Below are positions 8,395 to 54,182 of a stretch of DNA of 64,000 nucleotides, piece by piece. The stretch spans positions 17,050,001 to 17,114,000 of the forward strand of contig NC_135830.1 in assembly GCF_964213995.1 (NCBI RefSeq), read 5' to 3'. Source of the stretch: Mustelus asterias. Its lineage: Eukaryota. Below the pieces are notes generated by a model. That model was not told the DNA's origin, searched no databases, and worked only from the letters and a program-made list of their open reading frames with translations. The translations under genes were made by a program, and so were the position numbers. The first letter of the stretch is position 1. Each line of letters opens with the position of its first letter.

Positions 8395-9023
8395 CTGTAA
8401 AAGAAGTTGACAAAAATCATCACCGTCAGTGCTGGATAGAAATTCAGAACAGATAATTCTGAATATAACTGGACTAAAAACATGTGGTATACAGTGCCGC
8501 ATTTCTTAATTAGAGAGATGATGGGAAAGGGATTTGAGAAAACTATATTTCCTCCCGATTTTAAAAGCAATCTTTCTGAATTGTAATGTCTCTTTGACTG
8601 GAACTATATAACGTAACTACATGCTATATTACAAGAATAATACAATGAATCTTATTACCGAAATAAATATACCAAATATTTGAACACAAGATATATCTCT
8701 GTTGTTACTAATCTAAAAAGTAAACAAATTTCCAGAAAGTTCTAATGGAATACTGAAGGACAAGGTTACACATTGAAAAAAATACTTTACAAATCAATCT
8801 AAAACCAGCATCACTAAATCATGCAAAGAGATAAACAGTATTTGAATAGACAAGATAAATTACACTTTAAAAAGCTCAGACAATAAAAACAGGTTCCACA
8901 AAATCACAAACATTTTCCCCCTCAGTATATTTGGCTCTAATTCCAGTTCCAGAGAATTTCTCTGTCTCTGTATTTCCCAGGGGGAGAAAGAAAGTGTTTT
9001 CCTCACAGATGTTGTCCAGAGGA

Positions 9024-9176
9024 TGAAGTTTGAGTCTGTGGTGAAGTTTGAGTCTGTGTGTGAAGTTTGAGTCTGTGGTGAAGTTTGAGTGTGTGTGTGA
9101 AGTTTGAGTCTGTGGTGAAGTTTGAGTCTGTGTGTGAAGTTTGGGTCTGTGTGTGAAGTTTGAGTCTGTGGTGAAG
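9024..9176. repeat. Minisatellite, 18-19 bp unit TGAAGTTTGAGTCTGTG(G/TG), about 8 copies
   Basis: Direct inspection of the tandem units. Confidence 0.9.
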
Positions 9177-9269
9177 CTACAAACAGAAGCTGTTCTGTTT
9201 CAAATAAAACTGCGGGACTGGGAAGAAAATGATGGGAAGAGATTTTGCAAAGTCCCCTCCCCCACTCCC

Positions 9270-9700
9270 TCAGCTGGTAGCCCAGCGCGCAGGCGCAGAG
9301 AGCGCTGCTGAGCCGAGCTGTCCGGAGCAGGCGCAGAGAGCGCTGCTGAGCCGAGCTGTCCGGAGCAGGCGCAGTGCGGCTGCCGCCAGCGGTCGTTCTC
9401 GGTCTTTTTTTGGAGCCGCAGCCGCCAGAGAGGGGGGAGGGAGAGATCACCGAGCGGCTTCTCGCTCTGGCCGGAGCCGCTAGCCGGTTGCCTGGAAACC
9501 GTGGCTGGAGGAGGTGCAGGGGGGCGGGGCTCCCGTCTCCGCGGCCCCCGGGCCTGCGCACTAGAACCCGAAGATGTCACTGCGGTGCAGACTGGTTCCT
9601 ATTGGCTGATATAGGCAGGCCTCCATTGACGTCACAATGCGGAAGTTTGTTGATGATTTTCAGAGTGAAACTTCCGCCTCTGGACAACATCTGGGAGGAA
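9270..9700. promoter_or_regulatory. CpG-island promoter, probably bidirectional, between divergent ZNF loci
   Basis: CpG-rich. GCGCAGGCGCA (NRF1-like), GGGGCGGGG (Sp1), ATTGG (CCAAT), TGACGTCA (CRE, about 9628) and CGGAAGT (ETS). Includes a 38-bp tandem duplication at 9289-9374. Confidence 0.7.
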
Positions 9701-10367
9701 ATCAATGTTTCCCCCTTTCCATTTCTTTTCTCATTCTGGGGGAAACTGGGGACTTGCAGCAACTGAAGGGAAAGGAAGTGAATCCAGGGAGGCTGCAGAC
9801 TCTGGAACGATTGCAGACGAACATCGGAATTAGCAGGATTAGGCCCAGGTATCTTTTTCTTTCTCTCTCAAAGATATTGACATCTTTTGGCTCCCACAGG
9901 TTGTCGCATTTATTTATCTGGCGAATAGGATAGCCTCTTACCTAATGTTCACAATTAAAGGGGGAGTTTTCCCAGGAGAAGGCTGTTTGAATGAACAGTA
10001 AATTCGCCTGGGACAGAGATATGTTGAATGTAGTTATATGGTACGTGCTATGTTATTTATGAATCCCTATTTCTCGTCTTGATATATAAAAGGCACTGTG
10101 TCAACGTTACCTATTTCCACTGATGGAGACATTACAACATAAAAGGAATCCATTTGGCAACTCAAATCCATGCCAACCCTCTTTGGAGCAATTCAGCCAG
10201 TCCCATTCCCTCTCTATATTCCCATTCCCCTGAGTTTCACATCAGAATAGAATGGATGAGAATTCCAGATGAGCTGAGACTGGGGTGGAGTCGGGCGATG
10301 TCACTGAGATGGAAATAGTGATGATGATGTGGACATGTGGCTGGAAGCTCATCTTGGGGTGAAATAT

Positions 10368-34187: not shown

Positions 34188-34655
34188 ATGAGGGTGCTGA
34201 CTGTCTCTGGTTATTGTCCTGATCGCAGGACGGTCATTTTGAACCTTTGACTGAAATCCGCCAATCACCATATTCATTCCCCATTTCCATCTCTCGGCGA
34301 TTATTCCGTTGTTGTTACTCCTTCTAAACCGCTGCGTGTCTGTTGTCTATTTTCAGAGATGAGTAACGGTGACTCAGTGTCCCAGTCAGAACCAAGAGTT
34401 GAAGCAGCAGAGGGTGAAGATTCAGCAATACCCTGCAGTTACTCTGTATAGGGTTTACCTACAGTCTATGTCCTGTTCTGGTATCGCCAGTATCCACACC
34501 GAGCTCCTCAGAGCCGATAGTTATGGATTTACCGATACGGCTCCCGGCTTTAAACATTTCAGCGGGAACCTCAGCCAGACACAAAGCACTTTTCACTTGT
34601 CCATGAAAGATTTGAAGATGACAGATAACGCCGTGCATTACTGTGCACTCAGACC
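34188..34655 (+). pseudogene. T-cell receptor alpha/delta-type V gene segment pseudogene (degenerate leader about 34188-34232; V exon 34357-34655)
   Basis: After TTTCAG the exon reads GDSVSQSEPRVEAAEGEDSAIPCSYSV*...LFWYRQYPHRAPQ, then a frameshift, then ...STFHLSMKDLKMTDNAVHYCALR. TAG at 34449-34451. Confidence 0.85.
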
Positions 34656-34694
34656 CACAGTGAATGAGGATCCCGCGGGCTTCGTACAAAAACT
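34656..34694 (+). promoter_or_regulatory. V(D)J recombination signal sequence, 23-bp spacer
   Basis: CACAGTG (34656-34662), 23 nt, ACAAAAACT (34686-34694). Confidence 0.92.
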
Positions 34695-35502
34695 GGCGCA
34701 GGTCCTCAATCAATGGTTCCTTGTCCGCAAAACACCTTGCGTTGAATTTCAGATAAAATGTGCAGATCATGAGCCTGCCAATGCAGCCCCATCTGAGTGG
34801 CTTTCCCTCCTAACGTCAATGATTGTCACTGTTGGGGAAATGTGACATTTGGCGCTCAGATTATTCCTGGATAAATCCAATCATTTCCTGATCCCAATCA
34901 CAAAACCCACAGATGTCCCGGGTGAATAACTTAATAAATCAGTATTTTTAATCTTTCTGTGTCAGATGTTTATCTGTCAGGGAACACCTGTTAAATGTGA
35001 TCTAATATCAAAGGCACACTGAGAGTTGTCACATTTTGAAGTTTCTGGACAGAAATAATGACTGATTGAATCAGTACTTTCCCAGTATAAGAGTAATCCC
35101 AGTGGAAACGCAAGTCAATGTGGACTTGGGTGATTACTTATCCCCGGTATAAATAAAGCAGTGACTACTATTATGTTTATGCAGTGGATGCACTCATTAA
35201 TACCCGCAGAGTAAATGAGTGTAAATTATTTATTTCACTTTTAACTTTATTTATAAAGAAAGATTTATCTATAAAAAGGGGGACATTGAGTTCGATCGAA
35301 AGAGGGTGAACCGAGAAAGAGACAGTGTAACTGATAACGTTATTCACCTTTCATGGAAAGAGAAGGAGAGTGAGACCTCTTTTTAGGTCAAACCAAGTAA
35401 ACAAACTCAAATTAAATCAGGACAAAGTAAAAGGGGCAGCTCCCCAAAAAGGAGGGGGAACAGCCCGAACAGAAATCAAAATGCAAAGGAAACTTAAAAA
35501 CA

Positions 35503-38500
35503 TCAAATTAAAATGTGATTATTAGGGTCAATAATGCACCCCAACCCCTGCGGTGCCCAGCGGGCGCGGAAAGCGTCAACCTCGCCCGTGGACACCGCAT
35601 GCTCCCTCTCCAGGGACACCTGGCCGCGAACGTAGCCGCGGTAGAGGGGAAGACAGTCAGGATGGACGGCCCCCTCGATCGCCCGCTGCCTGGACCGGTA
35701 AATGGCGCGTTTCGCCAGGCCCAGGAGCAGGTTCACGAGGAGGTCGCCATCCCGACCCTCCCCTCTCCGCACCGGGTGTCCGTAGATCAGGAGCGTGGGA
35801 CTGAAGTGCAAACAAAACATCAATAAAAGGTTCTTCAGGAAAACATTAAGGGAGTGCAGCCTAAGCCACTCAACATAGACATGGTCCACGGACTCCACAA
35901 GGCCACAGAAAGGGCAGTCTTCGGAGCCCGTGAACCAGTGAATCCTACGGTTGTGCGGAACTGCTGCATGCATCACCCTCCACCCCAGGTCCCCGACGTA
36001 ATTGGGGGAGATCCCTCCGTAGAGGGACCTCCAGCGGGGACCTCCGCCGCCCGGCGGCAACAAGGCCCGCCAAGGTGTATCCGGGCGACAGGCGAGGAGG
36101 CGGTAGTGGAAGGTGTGCAGCAGCAGCCCGCACAGGAAACGCCTCCGCGCGGTAGAAAAAGGCACGGAGGGCATTTCCGCGAGGCGGCTCAGGCTGTGGG
36201 GCACCTCACCCAGGGGAGGGGGCTGAGGCTTTGGGCCAATGTGGAATTCCGCCCGAACAGGGGAACGCTCGGGCGGGATCCCACCGCACGCCTGCGCCGT
36301 CTCAAGTTTGCGTGCAGTTTCGGGGCCGAGCACGACCGTCCTAAGGTCTAGGATGGCTTTGGCCGCGCGCCGGACGGACGTCCCCACGCGCTCAGCCAGC
36401 ACGCGGGGACTCATCCAGCCCGCTCCTCCGCCATCGAGCACGTCCCCGATTCTGGTCACCCCGGCGTCCACAGCCCCCCTCTCCGCCAGCCACCTGAAGT
36501 TATACGGCTGGAGGAGCGGATTCCTGAGCAGCGGCTCTCGCACGAGAGCCGCTACTCCTGACGGGGGAGAGCTGCGTCGCGAGGCGACCTTGTTCCAGAC
36601 AGTGAGGAGGTCCTGGTAAAAGACGGGCAACTCCTGCAGGGTGGTCGAAGCACGCCCCAGTTCGATATGCAGGAGCTGCACGTCATAATTGAGGCCGTGC
36701 CACTGGCGGAAGAAATACGTCGCCATGGCACACCACTGTGGAGGGGGCTCAACGTAAAGGTACCTCTGCAGGGCCTGGAGGCGGAAGGTCGCTATCTGAG
36801 TGCGGAGGCACACCAGACCTTGTCCGCCCTCCTCAAGCGGGAGATACAGGACCGCAGCAGGGACCCAGTGCAGTCGATTGCCCCAGAAGAACCGCTCGAG
36901 GGTTTTCTGGATATCGGTGACAAAGCCAGGGGGAGGGGTCAAAGGGACCAGCCGGTACCACAGCATGGAGGCGACCAGCTGGTTTATGACGCGAGCTCGC
37001 GCCCCGTAGGACAGCACTCGGAGCAGTCCTGTCCAGCGACTCAGGCGGGCGGAGACTTTGGCCTCCAGCTCCCGCCAGTTCGCCGGCCAGGATTCCTCGG
37101 CTGGGCAGAGATGGGCCCCCAAGTAGAGGAGGTCGGTCCTGCTCCAGGTGAAAGGCCTGAGCTCCTCCGGGAGGGGGTCCGTCTCCCAAGGACCGACAAG
37201 GAGTCCGGAGCACTTGGCCCAGTTGATCCTGGCGGAGGACGCGGCGGAGTACACCGCCTGGCATTCTCGCATCCTCCGCAGGTCAGCCGGGTCCGTGAAC
37301 ATGAGGAGCACGTCGTCGGCGTAAGCTGACAGGACCACCCCTACGTCCGGTCCGCGCAGGACCAAACCTGACAACCTCCTCCGCAAGAGGCGCAGGAATG
37401 GCTCCACGCATACGGAATACAGTTGGCCGGACAAGGGGCAGCCCTGCCGTACTCCTCTCCCGAAGCGAAGGGGCGCCGTCAGGGACCCGTTAACCTTAAT
37501 CAGACACTCTGCGGCAGAGTACAGTAATCGGATCCGGGCGACAAAATGCGTCCCGAACCCGAATGCCCGCAGAGTCCCGAGTAAATACTCGTGCTCCACC
37601 CTGTCGAACGCCTTCTCCTGATCTAATGACAAGAAGGCGCCCGACAGACCAGCCCTCTGGGTGTGATGGATTAGGTCCCGGACCAGGTGGAGATTGTCAT
37701 GTATGCAACGGCCCGGGACCGTGTAGGACTGGTCAGGGTGGATCAAGTGGTCCAGCACGGATCCAAGGCGTGAAGCCATAGCCCTGGCAAAGATTTTATA
37801 ATCCGTGCTGAGGAGGGAGACCGGGCGCCAGTTCTTGAGCAGGTGGAGATCCCCCTTCTTGGGCAGCAGGGCAATGACGGCCCTGCGCCACGAAAGGGGC
37901 ATCTCCCCGGTAGCGACGCTCTCCCCCAGGACCCCCGCGTAGTCGCTCCCCAGGACGTCCCAGAACGCCCTGAAGAACTCTACTGTCAGCCCGTCCAGCC
38001 CAGGGGCCTTGCCCCGGCTGAGGCCATTTAGGGCGCCGGTCAGCTCGGCCATGGTGGTAGGGGCCTCGAGCCTGCCGACGCCCTCCGGGCTGACCTGCGG
38101 CAGGTCCTCCCACAGAAGTCTGCGGGCATCCTCGCTGGACGGATCCGGAGAGAAGAGCGAGGTGTAATACTCCCGGGCAATGGCCCGGATGCCCTCCGGA
38201 TCCGAGACGGGGGAACCGTCGTCGGCCAGCAGCGTAAGGAGCTGCTGACGGTTAGCCCGCCCTCTTTCCAGCGAGTAGAAGAAGGGGGAGCCGCGGTCCA
38301 GGTCCACCTGGAACTGGAGCCGCGACCTCACGTACGCGCCGCGAGACCTGGCAAGCTGCAGGTCCCGCAGCGCGTCCTTCTTCTCCCTGTACTCCGAACG
38401 CAGGGCCGGGTCCGCGTCAGGCCGACTGAGACGTGCCTCCAGGTCGAGCACCTCCTTCTCCAACTCCTCGAGCCTGGATTTCCGCCTCTTTGTCGACCCC

Positions 38501-39396
38501 CTCGCGTACCCCTGACAGAAGGTACGGACGTGAGTCTTGCCCACATCCCACCAGAGCCTCAAGGAGGGGAAGCCTCCCCGCTTCCTTCTCCAGCCGGCCC
38601 AGAATCGACGGAACGAGTCCAGGAAGCGCTCGTCCTCCAGCAGCGTGTTGTTAAAGTGCCAGTACGCGGACCCCCGCCGGATGCGAGACGGCGCAAAGTC
38701 CGCCCACACCAGGCTGTGGTCCGTGCTCGACACCAGCCGCATGGAGACCGAGGACACGCCGGACACGTGCGCCTTCGAAATGTAAAGGCGGTCGAGCCTG
38801 GACGCTCCGACTCCAGGCCTCACGAAAGTGAAGGCGCTGGAGCCAGGATGGAGATGTCTCCAGACGTCCACCAAGTCGTGAGACCCGATCAGGTCCCGCA
38901 ACTTCACCACCGCCGGAGTGCGCAGCCAGGGGCCGGTGCGGTCCCGTGCCTCGAGGATGCAGTTGAAATCTCCCCCGAGGATAATGCATTCGCCCCCCGC
39001 GATGGTGTCGATGTGAGCGGACACTTTCTCGTAGAAAGTCGTTTGCTGCGGTCCAGCGGTCGGGGCGTAGACATTCAGCAAGTGAATGACCACGCCCCCC
39101 TCACGGACCGTCAAGTGCAGCAACCGGCCTGGCACCGGCTCCTTGACCCCCAAGATCTCCGGCTTATAACGCGGGGCCAACAAGATAGCCACCCCGCAAG
39201 AAGCGAGCGTGAGGTGGCTCATGTAGACCCCCCCTCGCCACTCCAGGAGCCATTGGGCTTCGTCTCCCGGAACGGTGTGGGTTTCCTGCAGGAAACACAC
39301 CGCATACTTCCCGTCACGGAGGACCGAGAAGTTCTGGAACCTGCGGTGTGGCCCACTGCTGCCGTTGATGTTGAGGCTGGCTATGGTCACCTTCAT
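35503..39396 (-). CDS. Tx1 ORF2: APE endonuclease, reverse transcriptase and C-terminal zinc-binding region (1297 aa)
   Basis: SLNING, LQETH, GGDFN, SRLDRLY, TDHSLV, APGLDGL, NWRPVSLL, DQEKAFD, GVRQGCPLS, YADD, CPFCG..ESVDH. Confidence 0.95.
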   Translation of the reverse strand: MKVTIASLNINGSSGPHRRFQNFSVLRDGKYAVCFLQETHTVPGDEAQWLLEWRGGVYMSHLTLASCGVAILLAPRYKPEILGVKEPVPGRLLHLTVREGGVVIHLLNVYAPTAGPQQTTFYEKVSAHIDTIAGGECIILGGDFNCILEARDRTGPWLRTPAVVKLRDLIGSHDLVDVWRHLHPGSSAFTFVRPGVGASRLDRLYISKAHVSGVSSVSMRLVSSTDHSLVWADFAPSRIRRGSAYWHFNNTLLEDERFLDSFRRFWAGWRRKRGGFPSLRLWWDVGKTHVRTFCQGYARGSTKRRKSRLEELEKEVLDLEARLSRPDADPALRSEYREKKDALRDLQLARSRGAYVRSRLQFQVDLDRGSPFFYSLERGRANRQQLLTLLADDGSPVSDPEGIRAIAREYYTSLFSPDPSSEDARRLLWEDLPQVSPEGVGRLEAPTTMAELTGALNGLSRGKAPGLDGLTVEFFRAFWDVLGSDYAGVLGESVATGEMPLSWRRAVIALLPKKGDLHLLKNWRPVSLLSTDYKIFARAMASRLGSVLDHLIHPDQSYTVPGRCIHDNLHLVRDLIHHTQRAGLSGAFLSLDQEKAFDRVEHEYLLGTLRAFGFGTHFVARIRLLYSAAECLIKVNGSLTAPLRFGRGVRQGCPLSGQLYSVCVEPFLRLLRRRLSGLVLRGPDVGVVLSAYADDVLLMFTDPADLRRMRECQAVYSAASSARINWAKCSGLLVGPWETDPLPEELRPFTWSRTDLLYLGAHLCPAEESWPANWRELEAKVSARLSRWTGLLRVLSYGARARVINQLVASMLWYRLVPLTPPPGFVTDIQKTLERFFWGNRLHWVPAAVLYLPLEEGGQGLVCLRTQIATFRLQALQRYLYVEPPPQWCAMATYFFRQWHGLNYDVQLLHIELGRASTTLQELPVFYQDLLTVWNKVASRRSSPPSGVAALVREPLLRNPLLQPYNFRWLAERGAVDAGVTRIGDVLDGGGAGWMSPRVLAERVGTSVRRAAKAILDLRTVVLGPETARKLETAQACGGIPPERSPVRAEFHIGPKPQPPPLGEVPHSLSRLAEMPSVPFSTARRRFLCGLLLHTFHYRLLACRPDTPWRALLPPGGGGPRWRSLYGGISPNYVGDLGWRVMHAAVPHNRRIHWFTGSEDCPFCGLVESVDHVYVEWLRLHSLNVFLKNLLLMFCLHFSPTLLIYGHPVRRGEGRDGDLLVNLLLGLAKRAIYRSRQRAIEGAVHPDCLPLYRGYVRGQVSLEREHAVSTGEVDAFRARWAPQGLGCIIDPNNHILI

Positions 39397-39424
39397 GTCA
39401 GCAGCTTTGTGCCACCGTCACCAC

Positions 39425-41517
39425 TTAACTAGGTGTGTGGGGGGGCGCTGGCGCAATGCACGCCAGTCCACCCCCCACCTTTTCGAGCCTGTGGAGGAAC
39501 CGCAGTACCCAGCGCCGCTCTATTTTCTCCAGGCCCGCGGAGGCATGCGAGCATGCCTTCACGGACCGGACGAGCCGCGCCAGGTCCGGCCAGTGGCCGA
39601 GGGCTAGCCGGATTATGTCGGAGCGACCGGAATGGTTACGGATAAAGACCCTGAGGTCCTTGGAGGGGATGAGGGACGACTCGGTGGGGGGCACGAGGGA
39701 GTCCCCCGCCTCGCTCTGGGCAGACTCTGAAAGTGTCCCCGTGCCCTCCACCGAGCCGCTGACCTCCTCAGGGCGGTCGCCCCTCGACTCCGAGTCCCCC
39801 GCCGCAGGACGTACGGCGGGCGGCACGGAGCCACCAACTAGCCCTAGCCCCTCCCCGATCCCACCCCCAGGATCGGTGGAGGAGGGGTTCCCCCCGGGCT
39901 CACCTTTCCCGGATTGCGGGCCCCCGTGCGACGGCGGCCCAGCCGCCCCCCCCGCCCCAGACGCTTGGACACCCCCCAGGTCCGGTGTATCCTTCGGACT
40001 GAGGTTGGGGATGTCCAGCGTCCAAGGTCGGGACGGAGAGGACGAGTGGATCGTCTCTTCGCCGCCGCCGCACGAGGACGTGAACATTGGAGTGTCGCCC
40101 CAGTCCCCCGACAGACTGAAGAAGAACTCCGGGTTGTAACCGGCCGGGTGGAACGGAACCGTGGGGGCCCCGCTGCCACCCGGCCCCGGAGACTCCTCGC
40201 CGGGGGACTGAGGCAACACATGCTTCGATTTACAGGGTGCCTTGCCCCCTTTTTTCAGGGGACAAGGCACAAAGACAGGTGGGGGCACGGCAGGAGATGA
40301 CTCACAAGGGGGGAGGGGCACGCAGACCTCGAACTCTACGGTGCCCGAGGGGCCCCGCCTCTTTTTGTTAACCTGCCCTCGGGCAGGCGAGGCCCCTCGC
40401 CCTCCGCCCCTCTTCGCCTTGCCGCGCCCCCCCTGCTCTCCCGTCACTTCCCCCCGAGGTGGCGGCGTCGCCAGTTTTGCCGGCTCGGGGTCGCTTACCC
40501 CCCCATGCTCGGGCCCATGATCCCGGGTGCCGGACCCAGCACTAGGCCCAGGAGAGCCCACGGGCCCGGCAGATGGTGGTGGTGGGGGGGGGCGCAGGTG
40601 GAGACTGAGGCGGTCCCCGAGCCGGCTGCCGGGGTGGTTGGGGTGTCTTTCCTGGGGGCCGGGGTTCCGGTACCCCCCTTCTTTTTCGTGGGTCCCTTCT
40701 GGGCCTTTTGGCCGCGCGGGGGCTCCGCTCCCCCCCCGCCGGCAGCTGAGGTGGCAGCTGCTGCCGGCGTGGCCTCCCCTCGTGGGGGGGCAGATGGTAC
40801 TCGCTTGGGGGGAGAGGGGGCTGCGGTGCCAGCTGCGGCCGCCTTGGGTTGGTGGTCGGCGGCCTTGGAGACAGGGCAGTTTTTCCGCACGTGCCCCGCC
40901 TCCTTACAGGCATGGCACCGCACACCGTCCGCGGACCAAAAGACCCGGTACGTGGTCCCCTCGTGGGGGACATTGAACCCTCCCTCCAGTTCCTCCTCCC
41001 GGGCCAGGCGGACAAAAACCTGGCGCCGGAAGGAGTATATATGGCGGAGGGAGGGGTCCCGAAGGCCGAGCGGGATCGGCTGCACCCCGGACCTGACCTC
41101 CCCCAGTAGATAGAGGTGGGGGAGGAGGAGCTCACTCGGTAGGAAGGGCGGGACGTTCGATATTACTATCTTGTGGGCGGTGGCCTCCAAAGGGTCCACC
41201 GCCAGGAACGTCCCGCCCACCGTGAGCCCCTTTTCCAGGGCGAGGCGAACCGCCCGCTCGGCCTTCAGGAAGAATACGGCCCGGCCGTACATCTTTGAGG
41301 CCGCGACAATGGCTGAGGGGCCGACAACCCCAGCCATTGCCTTGACGCAGGCCTCAATAGACATGTCGGGGTGGGCGTAGCACTTCACCCCGAGCTGCCG
41401 CGTGATTAGGGAGAATGGTGGCAGGGCCTTGGGAGCGGCGGGGGCTCTGGCAGCCGCCACGCCCGCATAGGTGGGCCGAGAAGGCCCTGCCACCGGCGAC
41501 GCTGGTGATGTCGCCAT
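39425..41517 (-). CDS. Tx1 ORF1 (RNA-binding region, CCHC knuckle, long low-complexity tail), split by one frameshift near 40500-40600
   Basis: ORF 40495..41517 (IVAASKMYGRAVFFL, ISNVPPF, CHACKEAGHVRKNC) overlaps ORF 39425..40561. A G homopolymer lies at about 40583-40592. Confidence 0.8.
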
Positions 41518-41914
41518 GGTATCAAGGGAAGTGCTACGCCCATCCCGAGACTGCCCAGACGTACGGCAGGGCGTATGTGGGATGGGGACGATAAGGCAGG
41601 GTGGGGTAGGCGGGGAGGGGTGTAGGTGCTCTCTCCCCGGAGTGAGAGAGGGAGAGAGGAGGTTGGAGGAGCAGGAGGGAGACGAGGCACAAGGCCGGTG
41701 CCCCAGTCAGGAGGGAAAAAGGGGAGGGGGTGCCGGTCCCGGGGGCAGCAGCAGTGGGTAGGGGAATTAGGAAAAGGTCTTCACCCCCCCCACTGCAGAT
41801 GGAAAAGAGACAGTCCAAACGCCTTCGTTCGCCCCCCCCCCCCCCCTTCTCCTCCAGTCACTCCCTGTCCTCTCTTCCTCCCTCCCCCCGGGGAGAGCGC
41901 ACCCTCCAGAGGCC

Positions 41915-42290
41915 AGATGGCAGGCAAGCAGGCAGTCAGGCAGTCCAGACGGCAGGCAGGCCAGACGGCAAGCAGGCAGGCAGGTAGTCCAGACGGCAGG
42001 CAGGCAGGCAGTCCAGACGGCAGGCAGGCAGGTAGGTAAGCAGGCCAGACGGCAGGCAGGCAGGTAAGCAGGCCAAACGACAGGCAGGCAGGTAAGCAGG
42101 CCAGACGGCAGGCAGGCAGGTAAGCAGGCCAGACGGAAGGCAGGCAGGTAAGCAGGCCAGACGGCAGGCAGGCAGGTAAGCAGGCCAGACGGCAGGCAGG
42201 CAGGTAAGCAGGCCAGACGGCAGGCAGGCAGGTAAGCAGGCCAGACGGCAGGCAGGCAGGCAACAGGCAGGCCGGGCAAGGCAGGCAGCA
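41915..42290. repeat. 28-bp tandem repeat (GGCAGGCAGGCAGGTAAGCAGGCCAGAC)n in the Tx1 5'UTR
   Basis: GTAAG recurs with 28-bp period from about 42036 to 42232. Confidence 0.9.
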
Positions 42291-42479
42291 GCTCACCTCC
42301 CTCCTTCCTCCCCGCAGGGAGCCAAGAACAAACAAACAAAACAAAAACAAACAGAACCGGGCGTCTTCTTAAACAAACCCACCCCGGAAACAAAGTGCAG
42401 GCGCTGCCCCAGGGGAGGCACGTTTCAGGCCGTCTGAAGCTCAATTCTCACTCAGACCGAGAGCAGCAGCAGCTTTGCT

Positions 42480-42895
42480 GGGCAGGAATGAGCAGCTGAA
42501 CAAGCTCATTGTCCACTTCCGCATTCATACAATGGGGGAGCTCTGATTGGCTGGAGGACCAAAGAACTTCTGGTCCTCCAGAGTTTCCATTGGTCAATCC
42601 CCCGCTGACAGACAATGAGGGGCGGAGCCCCACGTGGGGGTGGGCGGGACTTTGTGCTCAAGCCGCGCTGAGCTGTTGTCCAATGGGAAAGGCTGGAAGA
42701 TCCGGACAGACAATGGTGAGTGCGCCGGCTTTGTCCCGGGCCCCGCCCCACATCCGCACATGCGCATTCCCCCCAAAATACGCACATGCGCACCTTTGAT
42801 TCAGGGCCCCTTCCTAGCTCTGGCCAATAGGAAGAGTTGGAGGACCGGAAGGACTCTGGTCCTCCCGCCATTGAGAGCGCGGGCCTTGTGTGAAT
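42480..42895. promoter_or_regulatory. CpG-island promoter, probably bidirectional
   Basis: Several CCAAT/ATTGG boxes, GC boxes, two GCACATGCGCA (NRF1-like), ACTTCCG (ETS) and two GGAGGACC...GGTCCTCC palindromes. Same architecture as 63400-63860. Confidence 0.75.
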
Positions 42896-42950
42896 GAAGA
42901 TGGAGTTTCAGAGAGAGTCAAAGTTTCTCCTGTCGTCCACATCTGTGAGT
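42890..42950 (+). other. Inferred first exon and 5' splice donor (CCACATCT|GTGAGT) of the ZNF gene at 53.4 kb
   Basis: Follows the promoter. The sequence resuming at 50543 is homologous to that after ACATCT at 9687-9810, upstream of the paralogous ZNF. Confidence 0.6.
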
Positions 42951-45900
42951 GGGAAAGATTGGACTGTCCAGCCAGTCCACCATATTGGCCGTTCGCTTTG
43001 CGTGTTGGCCAGTATAGTGTGCTCCAGGCAGGGGGCGGGCAGAGGATAAGGAGTTCAAGGCGGGCTTAATGCGCGCCTTGCGGTGAGCTTTTGGAAATGT
43101 GGCCGCTGGGAGGAACGCCTTGGTCGGCGTGAAGTTTCTGTTTCAAGTGCTTGGGTTCGTGACTTGTGCAAGAACTTTTTGTTTCGGCTGGGGCTTGTTG
43201 AATGCTGCTCTCGCTGGGATTCCTGTGCCTTGAAAGGCGTGGCCCGGGTGGATGCAATCTCGGAAGACCCAAGCCAGGGAGGAGCCATTTGGGAACTATG
43301 GTTTCGGAAGGTTCAGCCGCGGAAGGTGTGACCCCAGACGGTGCAGCCCCAGTGGGTGTGATTTTGGAAGTTCTGGCCCGGAGTGGTGGACTTTGGAGGA
43401 CTGTAGTTGAGCGTTGTCGACTTCGGACGGTGGAATGTTGATGGGCGAAGCTCTGGAAGGCGATGCCTCCGAAATGTTTCACAATTGTTCATGGATTGTT
43501 TGTTATTGTAATATGTGGTTTTCCTGTTATGATAGTTGGTGGTTTGTTCCGGCCCCCGTCTATTTTCTTGCGTTATTTGTGGCCTGGGGGGCATCCCCCC
43601 CTGGATAGAGTCACCCCCGGGGGGTGTGACATCCACTTGGGGAAAGTTCTGGGTGGTGAAGCCCCGGACATAGTAACACCAGAGGGATTTTTATTCTCCG
43701 GGAGAAAAATTGGGAAGGCAGGCCCGAACTGAGTACCCTGGAGAGACTCTCCCACCGCCCCGGCTGAAATTCCGGAAGGCAGTCCGGATTGAGTAGGCGG
43801 GGTGGTTTCCCCATTTCCCCCCTCTGGCTGAACATCCGTAAGGTGTAACCCCCGGATATGAGTACCACTGGAGGGTTGCATCCCCCGGCAGGTGGACAAA
43901 CCCAGGGGACGGTGCCCTTATGCTTCAGTGTTTATTTTTTTGTTGTGTACAGTTGTAGTGTTGTTAATGTTTGTAGATTTGTAGATTATGATTTGTAAAT
44001 GGAGGTGTATTTTGAGGGCAATGCCCTGGAAAACTGTAATTGACGATGAACCCTTCCGAAATGGAAGGTAGTAATTGATAAATGGATGGTGTTAGCCATC
44101 GGTAATGTATTTTTCATGAATTGTTTGTTATTGTAATATGTGGTTTTCCTGTTATGATAGTTGGTGGTTTGTTCCGGCCCCCGTCTATTTTCTTGCGTTA
44201 TTTGTGGCCTGGGGGGCATCCCCCCCTGGATAAAGTCACCCCCGGGGGGTGTGACATCCACTTGGGGAAAGTTCTGGGTGGTGAAGCCCCGGTCATAGTA
44301 ACACCAGAGGGATTTTTATTCTCCGGGAGAAAAATTGGGAAGGCAGGCCCGAACTGAGTACCCTGGAGAGACTCTCCCACCGCCCCGGCTGAAATTCCGG
44401 AAGGGATTCCGGATTGAGTAGGCGGGGTGGTTTCCCCCATTTCCCCCCTCCGGCTGAACATCCGTAAGGTGTAACCCCCGGATATGAGTACCACTGGAGG
44501 GTTGCATCCCCCGGCAGGTGGACAAACCCAGGGGACGGTGCCCTTATGCTTCAGTGTTTATTTTTTGTGTACAGTTGTAGTGTGTTAATGTTTGTAGATT
44601 TGTAGATTATGATTTGTAAATGGAGGTGTATTTTGAGGGCAATGCCCTGGAAAACTGTAATTGACGATGAACCCTTCCGAAATGGAAGGTAGTAACTGAT
44701 AAATGGATGGCGTTAGCCATTGGTAATGTATTTTTTTCACATTTGTTCTTTGTGTATTTGTAATTGTTTTGTATTAACGTATTTGTAATAAACAAAAAGA
44801 AATCCACATCTGTGAGTGGGAAAGATTGGACTGTCCAGCCAGTCCACCATATTGGCCGTTCGCTTTGCGTGTTGGCCAGTATAGTGTGCTCCAGGCAGGG
44901 GGCGGGCAGAGGATAAGGAGTTCAAGGCGGGCTTAATGCGCGCCTTGCGGTGAGCTTTTGGAAATGTGGCCGCTGGGAGGAACGCCTTGGTCGGCGTGAA
45001 GTTTCTGTTTCAAGTGCTTGGGTTCGTGACTTGTGCAAGAACTTTTTGTTTCGGCTGGGGCTTGTTGAATGCTGCTCTCGCTGGGATTCCTGTGCCTTGA
45101 AAGGCGTGGCCCGGGTGGATGCAATCTCGGAAGACCCAAGCCAGGGAGGAGCCATTTGGGAACTATGGTTTCGGAAGGTTCAGCCGCGGAAGGTGTGACC
45201 CCAGACGGTGCAGCCCCAGTGGGTGTGATTTTGGAAGTTCTGGCCCGGAGTGGTGGACTTTGGAGGACTGTAGTTGAGCGTTGTCGACTTCGGACGGTGG
45301 AATGTTGATGGGCGAAGCTCTGGAAGGCGATGCCTCCGAAATGTTTCACAATTGTATGGTTGTTCATGGATTGTTTGTTATTGTAATATGTGGTTTTCCT
45401 GTTATGATAGTTGGTGGTTCCGGCCCCCGTCTATTTTCTTGCGTTATTGTGGCCTGGGGGGCATCCCCCCCTGGATGGAGTCACCCCCGGGGGGTGTGAC
45501 ATCCACTTGGGAAAATGCTCTGGGTGGTGAAGCCCCGGACATAGTAACACCAGAGGGATTTTTATTCTCCGGGAGAAAAATTGGGAAGGCAGGCCCGAAC
45601 TGAGTACCCTGGAGAGACTCTCCCACCGCCCCGGCTGAAATTCCGGAAGGCAGTCCGGATTGAGTAGGCGGGGTGGTTTCCCCATTTCCCCCCTCCGGCT
45701 GAACATCCGTAAGGTGTAACCCCCGGATATGAGTACCACTGGAGGGTTGCATCCCCCGGCAGGTGGACAAACCCAGGGGACGGTGCCCTTATGCTTCAGT
45801 GTTTATTTTTTTGTTGTGTACAGTTGTAGTGTTGTTAATGTTTGTAGATTTGTAGATTATGATTTGTAAATGGAGGTGTATTTTGAGGGCAATGCCCTGG

Positions 45901-48900
45901 AAAACTGTAATTGACGATGAACCCTTCCGAAATGGAAGGTAGTAATTGATAAATGGATGGTGTCAGCCATCGGTAATGTATTTTTCATGGATTGTTTGTT
46001 ATTGTAATATGTGGTTTTCCTGTTATGATAGTTGGTGGTTTGTTCCGGCCCCCGTCTATTTTTTTGCGTTATTTGTGGCCTGGGGGGCATCCCCCCCTGG
46101 AAAAAGTCACCCCCGGGGGGTGTGACATCCACTTGGGGAAAGTTCTGGGTGGTGAAGCCCCGGACATAGTAACACCAGAGGGATTTTTATTCTCCGGGAG
46201 AAAAATTGGGAAGGCAGGCCCGAACTGAGTACCCTGGAGAGACTCTCCCACCGCCCCGGCTGAAATTCCGGAAGGAATTCCGGATTGAGTAGGCGGGGTG
46301 GTTTCCCCCATTTCCCCCCTCCGGCTGAACATCCGTAAGGTGTAACCCCCGGATATGAGTACCACTGGAGGGTTGCATCCCCCGGCAGGTGGACAAACCC
46401 AGGGGACGGTGCCCTTATGCTTCAGTGTTTATTTTTTTGTTGTGTACAGTTGTAGTGTTGTTAATGTTTGTAGATTTGTAGATTATGATTTGTAAATGGA
46501 GGTGTATTTTGAGGGCAATGCCCTGGAAAACTGTAATTGACGATGAACCCTTCCGAAATGGAAGGTAGTAACTGATAAATGGATGGCGTTAGCCATTGGT
46601 AATGTATTTTTTTTCACATTTGTTCTTTGTGTATTTGTAATTGTTTTGTATTAACGTATTTGTAATAAACAAAAAGAAAGCCAAAAAAAAAAAAAAAAAA
46701 AGATGGAGTTTCAGAGAGAGTCAAAGTTTCTCCTGTCGTCCACATCTGTGAGTGGGAAAGATTGGATTGTCCAGCCAGTCCGCCATATTGGCCGTTCGCT
46801 TTGCGTGTTGGCCAGTATAGTGTGCTCCAGGCAGGGGGCGGGCAGAGGATAAGGAGTTCAAGGCGGGCTTAATGCGCGCCTTGCGGTGAGCTTTTGGAAA
46901 TGTGGCCGCTGGGAGGAACGCCTTGGTCGGCGTGAAGTTTCTGTTTCAAGTGCTTGGGTTCGTGACTTGTGCAAGAACTTTTTGTTTCGGCTGGGGCTTG
47001 TTGAATGCTGCTCTCGCTGGGATTCCTGTGCCTTGAAAGGTGTGGCCCGGGTGGATGCAGTCTCGGAAGACCCAAGCCAGGGAGGAGCCATTTTGGAACT
47101 ATGGTTTCGGAAGGTTCAGCCGCGGAAGGTGTGACCCCAGACGGTGCAGCCCCAGTGGGTGTGATTTTGGAAGATCTGGCCCGGAGTGGTGGACTTTGGA
47201 GGACTGTAGTTGAGCGTTGTCGACTTCGGACGGTGGAATGTTGATGGGCGAAGCTCTGGAAGGCGATGCCTCCGAAATGTTTCACAATTGTATGGTTGTT
47301 CATGGATTGTTTGTTATTGTAATATGTGGTTTTCCTGTTATGATAGTTGGTGGTTTGTTCCGGCCCCCGTCTATTTTCTTGCGTTATTTGTGGCCTGGGG
47401 GGCATCCCCCCCTGGATGGAGTCACCCCCGGGGGGTGTGACATCCACTTGGGGAAAGTTCTGGGTGGTGAAGCCCCGGACATAGTAACACCAGAGGGATT
47501 TTTATTCTCCGGGAGAAAAATTGGGAAGGCAGGCCCGAACTGAGTACCCTGGAGAGACTCTCCCACCGCCCCGGCTGAAATTCCGGAAGGCAGTCCGGAT
47601 TGAGTAGGTGGGGTGGTTTCCCCCATTTCCCCCCTCCGGCTGAACATCCGTAAGGTGTAACCCCCGGATATGAGTACCACTGGAGGGTTGCATCCCCCGG
47701 CAGGTGGACAAACCCAGGGGACGGTGCCCTTATGCTTCAGTGTTTATTTTTTTGTTGTGTACAGTTGTAGTGTTGTTAATGTTTGTAGATTTGTAGATTA
47801 TGATTTGTAAATGGAGGTGTATTTTGAGGGCAATGCCCTGGAAAACTGTAATTGACGATGAACCCTTCCGAAATGGAAGGTAGTAATTGATAAATGGATG
47901 GTGTTAGCCATCGGTAATGTATTTTTCATGAATTGTTTGTTATTGTAATATGTGGTTTTCCTGTTATGATAGTTGGTGGTTTGTTCCGGCCCCCGTCTAT
48001 TTTCTTGCGTTATTTGTGGCCTGGGGGGGCATCCCCCCCTGGATAAAGTCACCCCCGGGGGGTGTGACATCCACTTGGGGAAAGTTCTGGGTGGTGAAGC
48101 CCCGGACATAGTAACACCAGAGGGATTTTTATTCTCCGGGAGAAAAATTGGGAAGGCAGGCCCGAACTGAGTACCCTGGAGAGACTCTCCCACCGCCCCG
48201 GCTGAAATTCCGGAAGGGATTCCGGATTGAGTAGGCGGGGTGGTTTCCCCCATTTCCCCCCTCCGACTGAACATCCGTAAGGTGTAACCCCCGGATATGA
48301 GTACCACTGGAGGGTTGCATCCCCCGGCAGGTGGACAAACCCAGGGGACGGTGCCCTTATGCTTCAGTGTTTATTTTTTGTTGTGTACAGTTGTAGTGTT
48401 GTGTTCATGTTTGTAGATTTGTAGATTATAATTTGTAAATAGAGGTGTATTTTGAGGGCAGGGCCCTGGAAAACTGTAATTGACGATGAACCCTTCCGAA
48501 ATGGAAGGTAGTAACTGATAAATGGATGGCGTTAGCCATTGGTAATGTATTTTTTTCACATTTGTTCTTTGTGTATTTGTAATTGTTTTGTATTAACGTA
48601 TTTGTAATAAACAAAAAGAAAGCCACATCTGTGAGTGGGAAAGATTGGATTGTCCAGCCAGTCCACCATATTGGCCGTTCGCTTTGCGTGTTGGCCAGTA
48701 TAGTGTGCTCCAGGCAGGGGGCGGGCAGAGGATAAGGAGTTCAAGGCGGGCTTAATGCGCGCCTTGCGGTGAGCTTTTGGAAATGTGGCCGCTGGGAGGA
48801 ACGCCTTGGTCGGCGTGAAGTTTCTGTTTCAAGTGCTTGGGTTCGTGACTTGTGCAAGAACTTTTTGTTTCGGCTGGGGCTTGTTGAATGCTGCTCTCGC

Positions 48901-50500
48901 TGGGATTCCTGTGCCTTGAAAGGCGTGGCCCGGGTGGATGCAATCTCGGAAGACCCAAGCCAGGGAGGAGCCATTTGGGAACTATGGTTTCGGAAGGTTC
49001 AGCCGCGGAAGGTGTGACCCCAGACGGTGCAGCCCCAGTGGGTGTGATTTTGGAAGTTCTGGCCCGGAGTGGTGGACTTTGGAGGACTGTAGTTGAGCGT
49101 TGTCGACTTCGGACGGTGGAATGTTGATGGGCGAAGCTCTGGAAGGCGATGCCTCCGAAATGTTTCACAATTGTATGGTTGTTCATGGATTGTTTGTTAT
49201 TGTAATATGTGGTTTTCCTGTTATGATAGTTGGTGGTTCCGGCCCCCGTCTATTTTCTTGCGTTATTGTGGCCTGGGGGGCATCCCCCCCTGGATAAAGT
49301 CACCCCCGGGGGGTGTGACATCCACTTGGGGAAAGTTCTGGGTGGTGAAGCCCCGGACATAGTAACACCAGAGGGATTTTTATTCTCCGGGAGAAAGATT
49401 GGGAAGGCAGGCCCGAACTGAGTACCCTGGAGAGACTCTCCCACCGCCCCGGCTGAAATTCCGGAAGGCAGTCCGGATTGAGTAGGCGGGGTGGTTTCCC
49501 CATTTCCCCCCTCCGGCTGAACATCCGTAAGGTGTAACCCCCGGATATGAGTACCACTGGAGGGTTGCATCCCCCGGCAGGTGGACAAACCCAGGGGACG
49601 GTGCCCTTATGCTTCAGTGTTTATTTTTTTGTTGTGTACAGTTGTAGTGTTGTTAATGTTTGTAGATTTGTAGATTATGATTTGTAAATGGAGGTGTATT
49701 TTGAGGGCAATGCCCTGGAAAACTGTAATTGACGATGAACCCTTCCGAAATGGAAGGTAGTAATTGATAAATGGATGGTGTTAGCCATCGGTAATGTATT
49801 TTTCATGGATTGTTTGTTATTGTAATATGTGGTTTTCCTGTTATGACAGTTGGTGGTTTGTTCCGGCCCCCGTCTATTTTTTTGCGTTATTTGTGGCCTG
49901 GGGGGCATCCCCCCCTGGAAAAAGTCACCCCCGGGGGGTGTGACATCCACTTGGGGAAAGTTCTGGGTGGTGAAGCCCCGGACATAGTAACACCAGAGGG
50001 ATTTTTATTCTCCGGGAGAAAAATTGGGAAGGCAGGCCCGAACTGAGTACCCTGGAGAGACTCTCCCACCGCCCCGGCTGAAATTCCGGAAGGGATTCCG
50101 GATTGAGTAGGCGGGGTGGTTTCCCCCATTTCCCCCCTCCGGCTGAACATCCGTAAGGTGTAACCCCCGGATATGAGTACCACTGGAGGGTTGCATCCCC
50201 CGGCAGGTGGACAAACCCAGGGGACGGTGCCCTTATGCTTCAGTGTTTATTTTTTGTTGTGTACAGTTGTAGTGTTGTGTTAATGTTTGTAGATTTGTAG
50301 ATTATGATTTGTAAATGGAGGTGTATTTTGAGGGCAATGCCCTGGAAAACTGTAATTGACGATGAACCCTTCCGAAATGGAAGGTAGTAACTGATAAATG
50401 GATGGCGTTAGCCATTGGTAATGTATTTTTTTCACATTTGTTCTTTGTGTATTTGTAATTGTTTTGTATTAACGTATTTGTAATAAACAAAAAGAAAGCC
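42951..50500 (+). mobile_element. Four tandem copies of a ~1.85-kb non-autonomous retroelement: 42951-44802, 44818-46701, 46754-48622, 48637-50498
   Basis: Each unit is a ~535-bp head, two ~625-bp internal repeats and an AT-rich tail ending AATAAACAAAAAGAAA(GCC). Units are separated by copies of CCACATCTGTGAGT. Unit 2 has a poly(A) tail. Confidence 0.8.
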
Positions 50501-50512
50501 ACATCTGTGAGT

Positions 50513-50530
50513 TTGACCTAAAAGAGGCCA
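50513..50530 (+). mobile_element. 18-bp stub of the Tx1 3' terminus
   Basis: TTGACCTAAAAGAGGCCA matches the Tx1 end TTTGACCTAAAAAGAGG. Flanked by ACATCTGTGAGT at 50501-50512 and 50531-50542. Confidence 0.75.
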
Positions 50531-51711
50531 ACATCTGTGAGTTTCTTTTCTCAATCTGGGGGAAATTGGGGACTTGCAGCAACTGAAGGGAAAGGAAGTG
50601 AATCCAGGGAGGGTGCAAACTCTGGAAAGGTTGGCCCAGGACTCTCTCTCTCTCTTAAAGACATTGATATCGAAACATCGAAGGAACTCCATCAGGAACA
50701 TCCTCCCTGCATCTATCCTGCCTCGACCAGTTAGAATTTTATCAGTCTCTTTGAGATTCCCCCCTCATTCATCTGAACTCCAATGAAAACAATCCTAACC
50801 TAGTCAATCTCTCCTCCTACATCAGTCCCGCGATTCCCTGAATCAGCCTGGTAAACATCCTTTGCTCCCTCAGCTTGACACATTTATTTGTCTGTCGAAA
50901 AGGATGGTTATTTTCCTCATGTTCACATTAAAGGGCAGCTTTCCCCAGGAGATGGCTGACATTTAAGCGTACAGTAACTTAATATAGGACAGAGATATGT
51001 CTAGTGTTATTCTATGTACCCAGATTAGATACATTCTTTATGCTTCTGTAATAAAATACATTTATTATTATTTCTTGCATTGTAGTATAATGCTGTAGCG
51101 ATGTTATACACTTCCAGTCATAAAGTCATTACAGCACAGAAGGAATCCATTTGGTAACTTGATTTCATGCTGACTCTCTGTATAACATTCCAGTCCCATT
51201 CCCACTCGATATCCCCATTCTCCTGAAAGGTTATTTCCTTCAACTGCCTATCCACTTTCATTTGTAAATAGAATCCATAGATATGGATGGAGATTTACAA
51301 CTTTTTGGGAATGAAATAGGAAAGAATGTTCCAGAGAAACTAGAATTGTCTGCTCTGAATTTCGATCCTATACTGACTGTGATGACTTTTGCAAGCTCAT
51401 TTCACAGGATTTTGAACGAGGAATCACAGGCAAAACTCTCAACCGTCACATCTAGAAAGAGTCATATTCCTTGGAATCTGAATATCTTGTAATGTGGAAC
51501 TGTAGCTACGTTATATATTTCCAGACGTCTCTTCCCTCAGAGGGTTGTTAGTCTTTTGGATTTCTCTTCTACAGGGACCAGTGGAGGCTGAGGATCATTG
51601 AATATATTCCAGTTAGACAGATCTTTGACTGACAAGGGTGTCAAGGGTTATAGGGAACAGACAAGAAGATGGAGCAAAAGCTAAGATGTGAGGGGATTTC
51701 TTCACTCAAGG

Positions 51712-52411: not shown

Positions 52412-52609
52412 AAGAGGAATCACAGGCCGAAATCTCAAACGTCACGTCGAGATCTGACATAGTCATATTCCTTGGGAGCTGAATATCATCGTCCTTTGAA
52501 TCTAGAAAGAGAAATTGTTGTCCAGTCTGTTGATTTGAAAAGATTTCAAACATCAGTGTGACTGGAAAAGCACCAACACACTGCCACACTCGAGTGAGGG
52601 TGTTCCAGT
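52412..52609 (+). repeat. 198-bp direct duplication of 53081-53278
   Basis: The two stretches read identical by eye. Confidence 0.9.
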
Positions 52610-53423
52610 AAAGCTTTGGAATTCTCAACCCCCGAGGACAGTGAAGCCTCAGTCATCAACTATTTTCAAGAGAGAGATTGATTGGTTTCTAGATGTTGAA
52701 AATATCAAGGGATATGGGTTTAGTGTGGGGAGAATGATGCTGAGGTAGATGAACGAATTATCTCATTGAATAGTTTAAAAGGCTCGATGAGCCAAATGGC
52801 CGACTGCAACTCCTCGTTGTCATGGTCTCTGTGTCCAGGACAGGAAGCAGTGAGCATGGATCTGTCAATCAGCCTCAATCAGCACCTTCAGGAGAATTGG
52901 GAGGGTGAATATTAGATACAGCAGAGTTTGAATGGAGGGAGAGTGTGTGGGATGGAGATTTACAGCTTTTGAGGAATGGGAGAGGAAAGAATGTTCCATA
53001 GAAACTAGAATTGTCTTTTCTGAATTTCTATCCTGTCCTGACAATGATGACTTTTGTAAACTTGTTTTACAGGATATTGAAAGAGGAATCACAGGCCGAA
53101 ATCTCAAACGTCACGTCGAGATCTGACATAGTCATATTCCTTGGGAGCTGAATATCATCGTCCTTTGAATCTAGAAAGAGAAATTGTTGTCCAGTCTGTT
53201 GATTTGAAAAGATTTCAAACATCAGTGTGACTGGAAAAGCACCAACACACTGCCACACTCGAGTGAGGGTGTTCCAGTGCACGGACTAAAGAGCTTTAAC
53301 CAGTTACACAGCCTGAATAACTATCACACCATTCACAGCAGGGAGAGACTGTACCCGTGTTCTGTGTGTGGACGAGGCTTCAACTGATTGTCCACCCAAG
53401 AGAGAGGCAAGGACACCTGCACC

Positions 53424-54182
53424 ATGGAGAAACCATGGAAATGTGCGGACTGTGGGAAGAGATACAGATACCCAACTGAGCTGGAAGCTCATCGGCGCAG
53501 CCACACTGGGGAGAGACCATTCACGTGCTCTCAGTGTGGGAAGGGATTCACTCAGTCATTCAACCTGCAGAGACACCAGCGAGCTCACACTGGGGAGAGG
53601 CCGTTCACCTGCTCTCAGTGTGGGGAGGGATTCACTTCTTCATCCTACCTGCGGAGGCACCAGCGAGTTCACACTGGGGAGAGGCCGTTCACCTGCTCTC
53701 AGTGTGGGGAGGGATTCACTTCTTCATCCTACCTGCGGAGGCACCAGCGAGTTCACACTGGGGAGAGGCCGTTCACCTGCTCTCAGTGTGGGAAGGGATT
53801 CACTCGGTCATCCAGCCTGCGGACACACGAGCGAGTTCATACTGGGGAGAGGCCGTTCACGTGTTCTCAGTGTGGGGAGGGATTCACTCGGTCATCCAGC
53901 CTGCGGGCACACGAGCGAGTTCACACTGGGGAGAGGCCATTCACCTGCTCTCAGTGTGGGAAGGGATTCTGTGATTCATCCCGCCTGCTGAGACACCAGC
54001 AAGTTCACACTGGGGAGAGGCCGTTCACCTGCTCTCAATGTGAGAAGAGATTCACTCGATTATCCAGCCTGCTGAGACACCAGCGAGTTCACACTGGAGA
54101 GAAGCCGTTCACCTGCTCTGTGTGTGAGAAGAGATTCAGTCTTTCATCCAGCCTGCTGAGACACCAACGAGTTCACGAATGA
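53424..54182 (+). CDS. C2H2 zinc-finger protein, 9 fingers (MEKPWKC start), no KRAB domain seen
   Basis: ORF 53388..54182 with first ATG at 53424 and TGERP linkers. Acceptor TTTTACAG at about 53072. Confidence 0.8.

Follow-up and report, generated by a model that had tools for sequence, protein, structure and literature searches.

The stretch of Mustelus asterias DNA analysed here (64,000 nucleotides, referred to as the window) is part of a C2H2 zinc-finger (ZNF) gene cluster on contig C71 (17050001-17114000; genome 3.68 Gb), in which a Tx1-clade retrotransposon without long terminal repeats (non-LTR) and tandem non-coding units of ~1.85 kb lie on the two sides of a ZNF promoter. We consider it probable that a Tx1 family and a non-coding passenger of 1.25-1.9 kb prefer the ~55-bp exon 1 of ZNF genes, using the host promoter and read-through target bases to return to it. 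The 1.85-kb units are real retroelements, and the spacer between them is a target-site duplication (TSD) of ~15 bp. An earlier interpretation made from the letters alone (the sequence-only reading) had taken the exon-1 splice donor as the target of the family; the preference for exon 1 of the ZNF family stands, whereas the target is exon 1 with two sites and not the donor as such. Moreover, exon-1 targeting is a preference and is not strict.

Non-coding units insert repeatedly at ZNF exon 1

The spacer motif ACATCTGTGAGT occurs at exactly 42939, 44806, 46742, 48625, 50501 and 50531, and four units follow it on the + strand, as the sequence-only reading had described; the - strand has zero copies. 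The units are 1852-1868 bp long, 98-99% alike (9-20 mismatches per pair) and built of a head of 545 bp, two monomers of ~625 bp and a U-rich tail that contains AATAAA. Unit 1 (42951..44802, +), with AATAAA at 44787 and a longest + strand open reading frame (ORF) of at most 96 aa, is flanked at its 3' end by a TSD with the donor inside (44803..44817, +). Placed by sequence, unit 2 with GCC and a run of 19 A follows (44818..46701, +), then a second copy of exon 1, donor included (46700..46753, +), unit 3 with its TSD (46754..48636, +) and unit 4 with its TSD (48637..50512, +). No plain spacer follows unit 2, which ends in GCC, 19 A and the second exon 1 (46700-46753). The end of this poly(A)-bearing copy falls 3 bases into the target, and it is likely a copy of a polyadenylated read-through transcript. 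Behind unit 4 lies a 3' stub of an old CCA-site Tx1 subfamily (50513..50527, +), common to paralogue L146; the stub is 15 bp and not 18 bp long, since the trailing CCA is duplicated target. The final target copy (50528..50542, +, by sequence) precedes the host intron.

The units show the 5' truncation, fixed A-rich 3' end and TSDs of non-LTR retroelements, and have neither the RNA-gene-derived head nor the partner-LINE (long interspersed element) 3' tail of a short interspersed element. A Rfam search of 41800-45000 returned two sub-threshold matches only, i.e. no unit head derived from tRNA, 7SL, 5S or snRNA. One stretch of the monomer folds stably (z -3.1).

The same junctions recur across the genome. 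Among the 40 best unit 5'-end matches (204 candidates), 30 were fetched and all 30 start directly after the donor motif or a one-base variant of it. At the 3' side, AATAAA-gap-CAACATCTGTGAGT had 106 genome matches, in arrays of up to 12, versus 0 in the reversed control; 29 of 30 fetched loci are units, and at least one of the 106 (L061) is not. For the Tx1 end, AAAAGAGG-gap-ACATCTGTGAGT had 371 matches versus 0 in the reversed control. Because of these counts, chance is excluded for both junction patterns. Exact-consensus exon-1 donors number 108; among the first 100 listed, 25 lead into a unit, 72 into ordinary intron and three into other sequence. Three non-unit inserts behind donors proved to be one near-full-length CCA-type Tx1 and two different gene structures.

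The 17 host-first unit junctions form 12 clusters at 93% flank identity, while the median identity of the unit heads is 98.8%, and young units sit in host sequences that are only 64-95% alike. Because host flanks diverge while the units stay ~99% alike, we conclude that units have inserted repeatedly and independently at ZNF exon 1. Moreover, L146 is 95% identical to the window promoter and has the stub and no units; by this comparison, one locus took at least five successive inserts.

Copies also lie elsewhere. The unit 3' end had 234 genome matches, a count from which the filter drops some; among the first 100 listed, 66 are dispersed and ~34 lie in ZNF clusters (counted by eye), and 41 of the 66 dispersed ends belong to four arrays of a second subfamily at TCCYTGATTG. 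The dispersed units are 5'-truncated, with TSDs of 9-16 bp at 10 of 13 single loci (read by eye). Because dispersed copies carry these other TSDs, the spacer is host DNA, and the possibility raised in the sequence-only reading that it is a part of the element is ruled out. A Tx1 family has been called target-specific when more than 20% of its flanks fall in one sequence type (PMC4494074); for the units, the raw count is roughly 100 of 234 or more. Subfamily B of the unit (L152, L161, L162, L165, L167) forms tandem arrays at TCCYTGATTG, and its head consists of ~230 bp of this target and a transduced piece of ZNF exon 1.

Tx1 subfamilies occupy two sites in exon 1

The window Tx1 (35376..42456, -) belongs to a young subfamily that inserts at TCT sites; it ends in AAAAAGAGG before TCTC and has no TSD. 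ORF2 (35503..39396, -; 1297 aa) contains APE endonuclease and reverse transcriptase (RT) domains (Pfam PF03372 and PF00078). Its top protein match is Xenopus Tx1 ORF2 (YTX2; 48% identity over 1295 aa, full length), and the matches of highest identity, both partial, are from Hemitrygon (70%) and Heterodontus (64%). ORF2 domain content and nearest match, together with the CCHC knuckle of ORF1 upstream (39425..41517, -), assign the element to the Tx1 clade, as judged from sequence. ORF1 is frameshifted near 40.8 kb (340 aa versus 699 aa in intact sister copies), and the last Cys of the C-terminal ORF2 zinc motif is replaced by Trp in the window copy alone (32 motifs found). Because ORF1 is frameshifted and the zinc ligand is lost, the window Tx1 is not autonomous in cis, contrary to what had been claimed.

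This Tx1 had also been placed directly after a donor on the - strand. It is indeed a Tx1 with an APE and RT ORF2; however, no donor precedes it, as GTGAG at 42451-42447 aligns with TCTGAATGAAG, the start of ZNF exon 1 and of the head of other young copies, and by this alignment reads as a variant of the exon-start sequence. The head (42385..42456, -) mimics ZNF exon 1, aligning with it through the donor position with the donor itself lost, and then enters the start of a tRNA-Val-like segment. In sister copies the head continues into this segment and one or two GTGAGT motifs, and ARAGORN called tRNA-Val in three old copies. The window head is ~115-125 nt shorter than most sister heads; the tRNA-Val-like segment is gone at a junction that fits GT-AG splicing and matches a GTGAGT...TTTTCAG intron, although among the examined copies no single unspliced one has both ends. 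The 3' flank is not ZNF exon 1, and the window Tx1 is likely a recombinant or rearranged copy.

Young TCT copies are 99.2% pairwise alike (0.8% apart, n=16). Behind most of 30 identical young-type 3' ends comes either the TCT tract at the start of exon 1 or another copy's head. Among the first 100 of 201 young-type ends, 48 lie at exon-1-start or head-like sequence; by location, 39 are on C1-C69 (21 begin TCT, one of those a head), 47 are on later contigs, where exon-1-start or head-like sequence follows (one array accounts for 15), 4 are donor-side and 10 are other. The four young-type ACAA copies at donors are one event and were discarded as independent evidence. None of the 39 dispersed ends enters a long TC run; the L149 copy has about six repeats.

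Most of the 30 fetched AAAAGAGG-gap-ACATCTGTGAGT loci are 3' pieces of Tx1 that range from stubs of 8 bp to long copies. On chromosome-scale contigs, they are truncated at many distinct 5' points and sit at the same base. The earlier proposal that a Tx1 family shares the donor-side site thus holds for the older CCA subfamily, the source of the stub, and not for the window copy. In a tree of 29 Tx1 3' regions, whose bootstrap had not fully settled, the 16 TCT copies are nested inside 11 CCA copies (93% alike; support 100/99), with a third subfamily outside. This nesting means that the target has shifted, from the donor side in the older copies to the exon start in the young ones.

Insertion was expected to leave the donor intact, which is so for units; several full-length old Tx1 copies lack the upstream donor. 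In four of them, all that stands upstream is CCAACATC or a variant, and three of these have a donor of their own in the head; L249 is a full-length old copy directly after a host donor, and several short Tx1 inserts delete the exon tail. We conclude that donor preservation is a rule for units only.

Among the first 100 listed of 739 old-type ends, the TT-variant is followed by CCA in 15 of 15 cases and the TA-variant by GCA in 68 of 85. The GCA-type group is large and essentially dispersed and, with TSDs absent, was uninformative about read-through. The dispersed GCA-type copies L175-L188 are short and TSD-less, unlike the CCA and TCT types, and possibly reflect another integration mode. The third subfamily (L203, L205 and L206, on C1 and C2) is 88-89% identical to the others and ends GGTATC...AAAGAAA; many of its 347 ends (control 15) are followed by TACCTGATGAG or TCCCTGAT, another multicopy target. 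Having 0 matches at the ZNF site, it was rejected as partner there, and it has no significant blastn or tblastx match to the unit; it may serve unit subfamily B. No unrelated Tx1 family was found among the examined loci. At L098, the donor site holds a fusion between a tRNA-like sequence, presumably Gly, and the 3' stub of a Tx1; ARAGORN called no tRNA, and the fusion suggests template switching onto a tRNA.

In total, exon 1 contains two sites. Site D, used by passenger A and the old CCA subfamily, lies 9 bases before the donor, with a ~15-bp TSD that ends just past GTGAGT, whereby every passenger insertion restores donor and target at either side and arrays grow to as many as 12; site T, used by the young subfamily, is the TCT tract opening exon 1, ~50 bp upstream of site D. 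With the nick 9 bases upstream of GT, duplication of the donor is a matter of geometry; for this reason, and because dispersed copies need only SCA, TCT or TCC, the donor itself is probably not the recognised feature. Units and the CCA subfamily do recur at exon 1, so their flanks are not random; nevertheless, many copies are dispersed at 3-4-base motifs. The pattern expected of splice-donor targeting, both elements at a used donor and donors generally preferred, was not found.

The exon-1 donor is used in the ZNF gene family

The bidirectional promoter (42480..42895, no strand) has four CCAAT and three GC boxes, and paralogues have exon 1 on either side of it. It had been described as a CpG promoter; with 59% GC and a CpG observed/expected ratio of 0.55, the promoter stands and its CpG island is marginal. 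ZNF exon 1 (42897..42944, +), with its donor GT at 42945, is followed by exon 2 (53073..54182, +; acceptor AG 53071-53072). The ZNF ORF (53424-54182, +; 252 aa, nine C2H2 fingers) lies entirely inside exon 2, and exon 1 is therefore an untranslated leader (5' UTR).

Contigs of four runs (X1, X2, X17 and X18) were placed on the paralogue L172 at 82% likeness. In X17, two contigs join the base directly before GTGAGT to the acceptor homologous to that of exon 2 (a GT..AG joint), and a third contig reaches this acceptor via a variant exon end; in one X17 contig, exon 1 continues into the head of the unit. The donor-to-exon-2 joint was absent from X1, X2 and X18, and X18 has a joint that skips the insert. 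The kind of X17 is unrecorded, and it is RNA-like by its joints and exon-rich cover. Thus, the earlier claim that GTGAGT is a used donor is borne out at the level of the gene family, from one run for which processed DNA copies are possible. Contigs of X1 and X2, from two other organisms, cover part of the unit head on L172, which hints that the unit is not restricted to one species.

Proposed read-through priming and its alternatives

In the model that we propose, elements would be co-transcribed from the host promoter. A passenger behind the donor would leave with intron 1 when the upstream donor splices; if its AATAAA is used instead, the RNA would consist of exon 1, the element, 2-3 target bases and poly(A). 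The last bases of this RNA would anneal to the nicked strand, so that every lineage would come to have a motif of its own (SCA, TCC or TCT), and the exact junction after GTGAGT would follow from the exon 1 at the RNA 5' end. The passenger is likely mobilised in trans by the Tx1 family, and the young subfamily, with its donor-less exon 1 as head, likely goes back to one RNA headed by exon 1. Candidate causes of the regional preference for ZNF exons are promoter chromatin or longer contacts of the endonuclease. Three observations favour read-through priming: units that are nearly identical use different motifs, an internal variant goes with the identity of the first target base, and the only young open-frame autonomous copies found are TCT-type while the units are equally young (0.5-1.1% apart versus 0.8% for the TCT subfamily). 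More tentatively, we raise the possibility of an RNA-steered Tx1 system in which one enzyme would serve several RNAs, each inheriting its motif from read-through bases, splicing versus intronic polyadenylation would decide between ZNF mRNA and element RNA, and a captured exon would have made a self-targeting subfamily at the transcription start.

Several observations weigh against read-through return to exon 1. The window Tx1 has no significant blastn or tblastx match to the unit, which also ruled out the unit as its internal deletion; because just ~7 terminal bases are common, the partnership is putative and the earlier pairing of an autonomous with a non-autonomous element unproven. The third subfamily shares the last 7 bases of the unit yet has 0 ends at the ZNF site. 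Of CCA-type ends of at least 20 bases, 86 of 316 (27%, raw count) lie at the ZNF donor-side site; counts are inflated by duplication of host genes or by redundant contigs, as 40 copies fetched from C71 and the small contigs represent about 12 events. The actual share is therefore smaller, by our estimate perhaps 10-15%, and the CCA type may fall below 20% once duplicates are collapsed. Likewise, L195-198 are a single event, as are L199-201. The first 100 listed old-type ends all lie on C1-C5, outside ZNF clusters; 13 of 14 dispersed GCA-type copies are without a TSD; and in dispersed copies the first bases occur at either side of the TSD, a pattern compatible with both models of site choice. 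The X17 contigs match L172 at 82%, and splicing across an occupied site is thus putative. The age test covered 51 of the 86 CCA-site copies, 0 of which were young. Finally, the subfamilies have different endonuclease residues in the hairpin loop and beside it (S/R, F/Y, V/T), and the site shift may therefore be protein-driven.

This last point bears on classical specificity, in which the APE domain would read exon-1 sequence, amino-acid changes would have shifted the site from D to T, an unsampled young CCA-type or other Tx1 would have moved the young units, and read-through would be incidental. The residue changes around the loop are subfamily-consistent, the Xenopus Tx1L endonuclease nicks its target almost exclusively with the hairpin loop implicated (PMC1950540), and the endonuclease is, according to Kojima, the main determinant of the target (PMC4494074). 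We nevertheless think this explanation unlikely, as the two unit subfamilies are 97-98% alike and use different motifs, no young CCA-type autonomous copy occurs among the 51 sampled, and dispersed sites have only 3-4 bases in common. It is improbable that there is no real exon-1 targeting, i.e. that a short motif and open promoter chromatin, amplified by ZNF duplication, redundant assembly and tolerance of UTR insertions, produced the pattern. Duplication is heavy on C71 and the small contigs, dispersed copies number in the hundreds, and several dispersed units have a Tx1 fragment at a distance of about 1 kb or less, which suggests general hot spots; however, the many truncation points at one base, the divergent hosts of young units and the five or more inserts at one locus argue otherwise, and ~10% of events at ~10^3 sites among ~10^8 CCA motifs would be an about 10^4-fold enrichment (estimate). 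The strong donor form, in which first-exon 5' splice sites would be recognised as such on both promoter sides, e.g. via U1 snRNP (small nuclear ribonucleoprotein), seems to us very improbable. Unit 5' junctions fall exactly after GTGAGT, the donor is used in the gene family and element heads bear their own donors, but the window Tx1 is not at a donor, dispersed 3' flanks have no general donor motif, and units and Tx1 also insert at variant sites with GGGAG, GTGGGT or GTGAGG. Read-through priming with a preference for exon 1 thus remains our favoured explanation.

Relation to known target-specific elements

Kibi and Koshi are Tx1 families of TC and TTC microsatellites. Insertion of the young subfamily at TCT, often within a short tract of TC, is similar; however, the tract has only 2-5 repeats inside a ZNF exon, the young subfamily descends from CCA-site ancestors, and a Kibi-like (TC)n specificity was not found in it. 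CRE and SLACS, like NeSL, are elements of spliced-leader exons. NeSL and R2 resemble the present system in that the target is a short multicopy non-coding exon and, for R2, host transcription is relied on (PMC4494074), and differ in having a restriction-like endonuclease (PMC4640811) and RNA-gene targets rather than protein-coding genes transcribed by RNA polymerase II (Pol II). Tx1L of Xenopus laevis has the same APE-RT layout and a preference for multicopy sequence; unlike the loosely targeted first exon of protein-coding genes here, its target is the Tx1D transposon (PMC4494074, PMC1950540), and L1/Tx1L chimeras indicate that the hairpin loop matters for specificity (PMC1950540). In crocodilians, Tx1-Mar and SINEU passengers are paired by a shared target, with tandem insertion, flank-derived 5' extensions and proposed co-transcription (PMC4494074). 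Here, too, a Tx1 and non-autonomous passengers combine a common target, tandem insertion and 5' extensions from flanking DNA; the crocodilian target, by contrast, is a Mariner transposon and the heads are U1/U2-derived, whereas the passenger described here is 1.25-1.9 kb long without a Rfam head.

Targets listed for site-preferring non-LTR elements are RNA genes, spliced-leader exons, transposons, microsatellites and telomeres (PMC4494074, PMC4640811), and the first exon of Pol II protein-coding genes would extend these classes. In agreement with the sequence-only reading, no Tx1 targeting a ZNF exon or splice donor was found described in the literature covered, with Repbase Reports, most subscription papers and supplements outside that coverage. 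Zinc-finger genes, as a class, are known to silence transposons in other vertebrates. Here, occupation of about one quarter of the consensus donors may influence ZNF expression and promote rearrangement of the clusters. Moreover, subfamilies that are 93-94% alike with different sites are a natural experiment on whether the endonuclease or RNA ends set the specificity of APE elements, a question that bears on retrotransposon-based gene insertion.

Other features of the cluster

Within the intron, the start of exon 2 (53081-53278) recurs as an exact duplicate of 198 bp at 52412-52609, beside an RT-bearing repeat fragment. A second bidirectional ZNF promoter lies at 9000-9730, with the donors GTGAGG and GGGAGG and a tandem-repeat expansion in the left exon; paralogues L195-L198 have a Tx1 insert there. 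In the ZNF genes L247 and L248, an exon-1-like segment follows a splice acceptor and continues directly into exon-2-like sequence. Finally, 34363-34845 (+) has a weak V-set match (E 8e-5) and a YC-like motif followed by a CACAGTG heptamer, and reads as a T-cell-receptor or immunoglobulin (Ig) V-like fragment amid the ZNF cluster, adjoining the Tx1 3' end.

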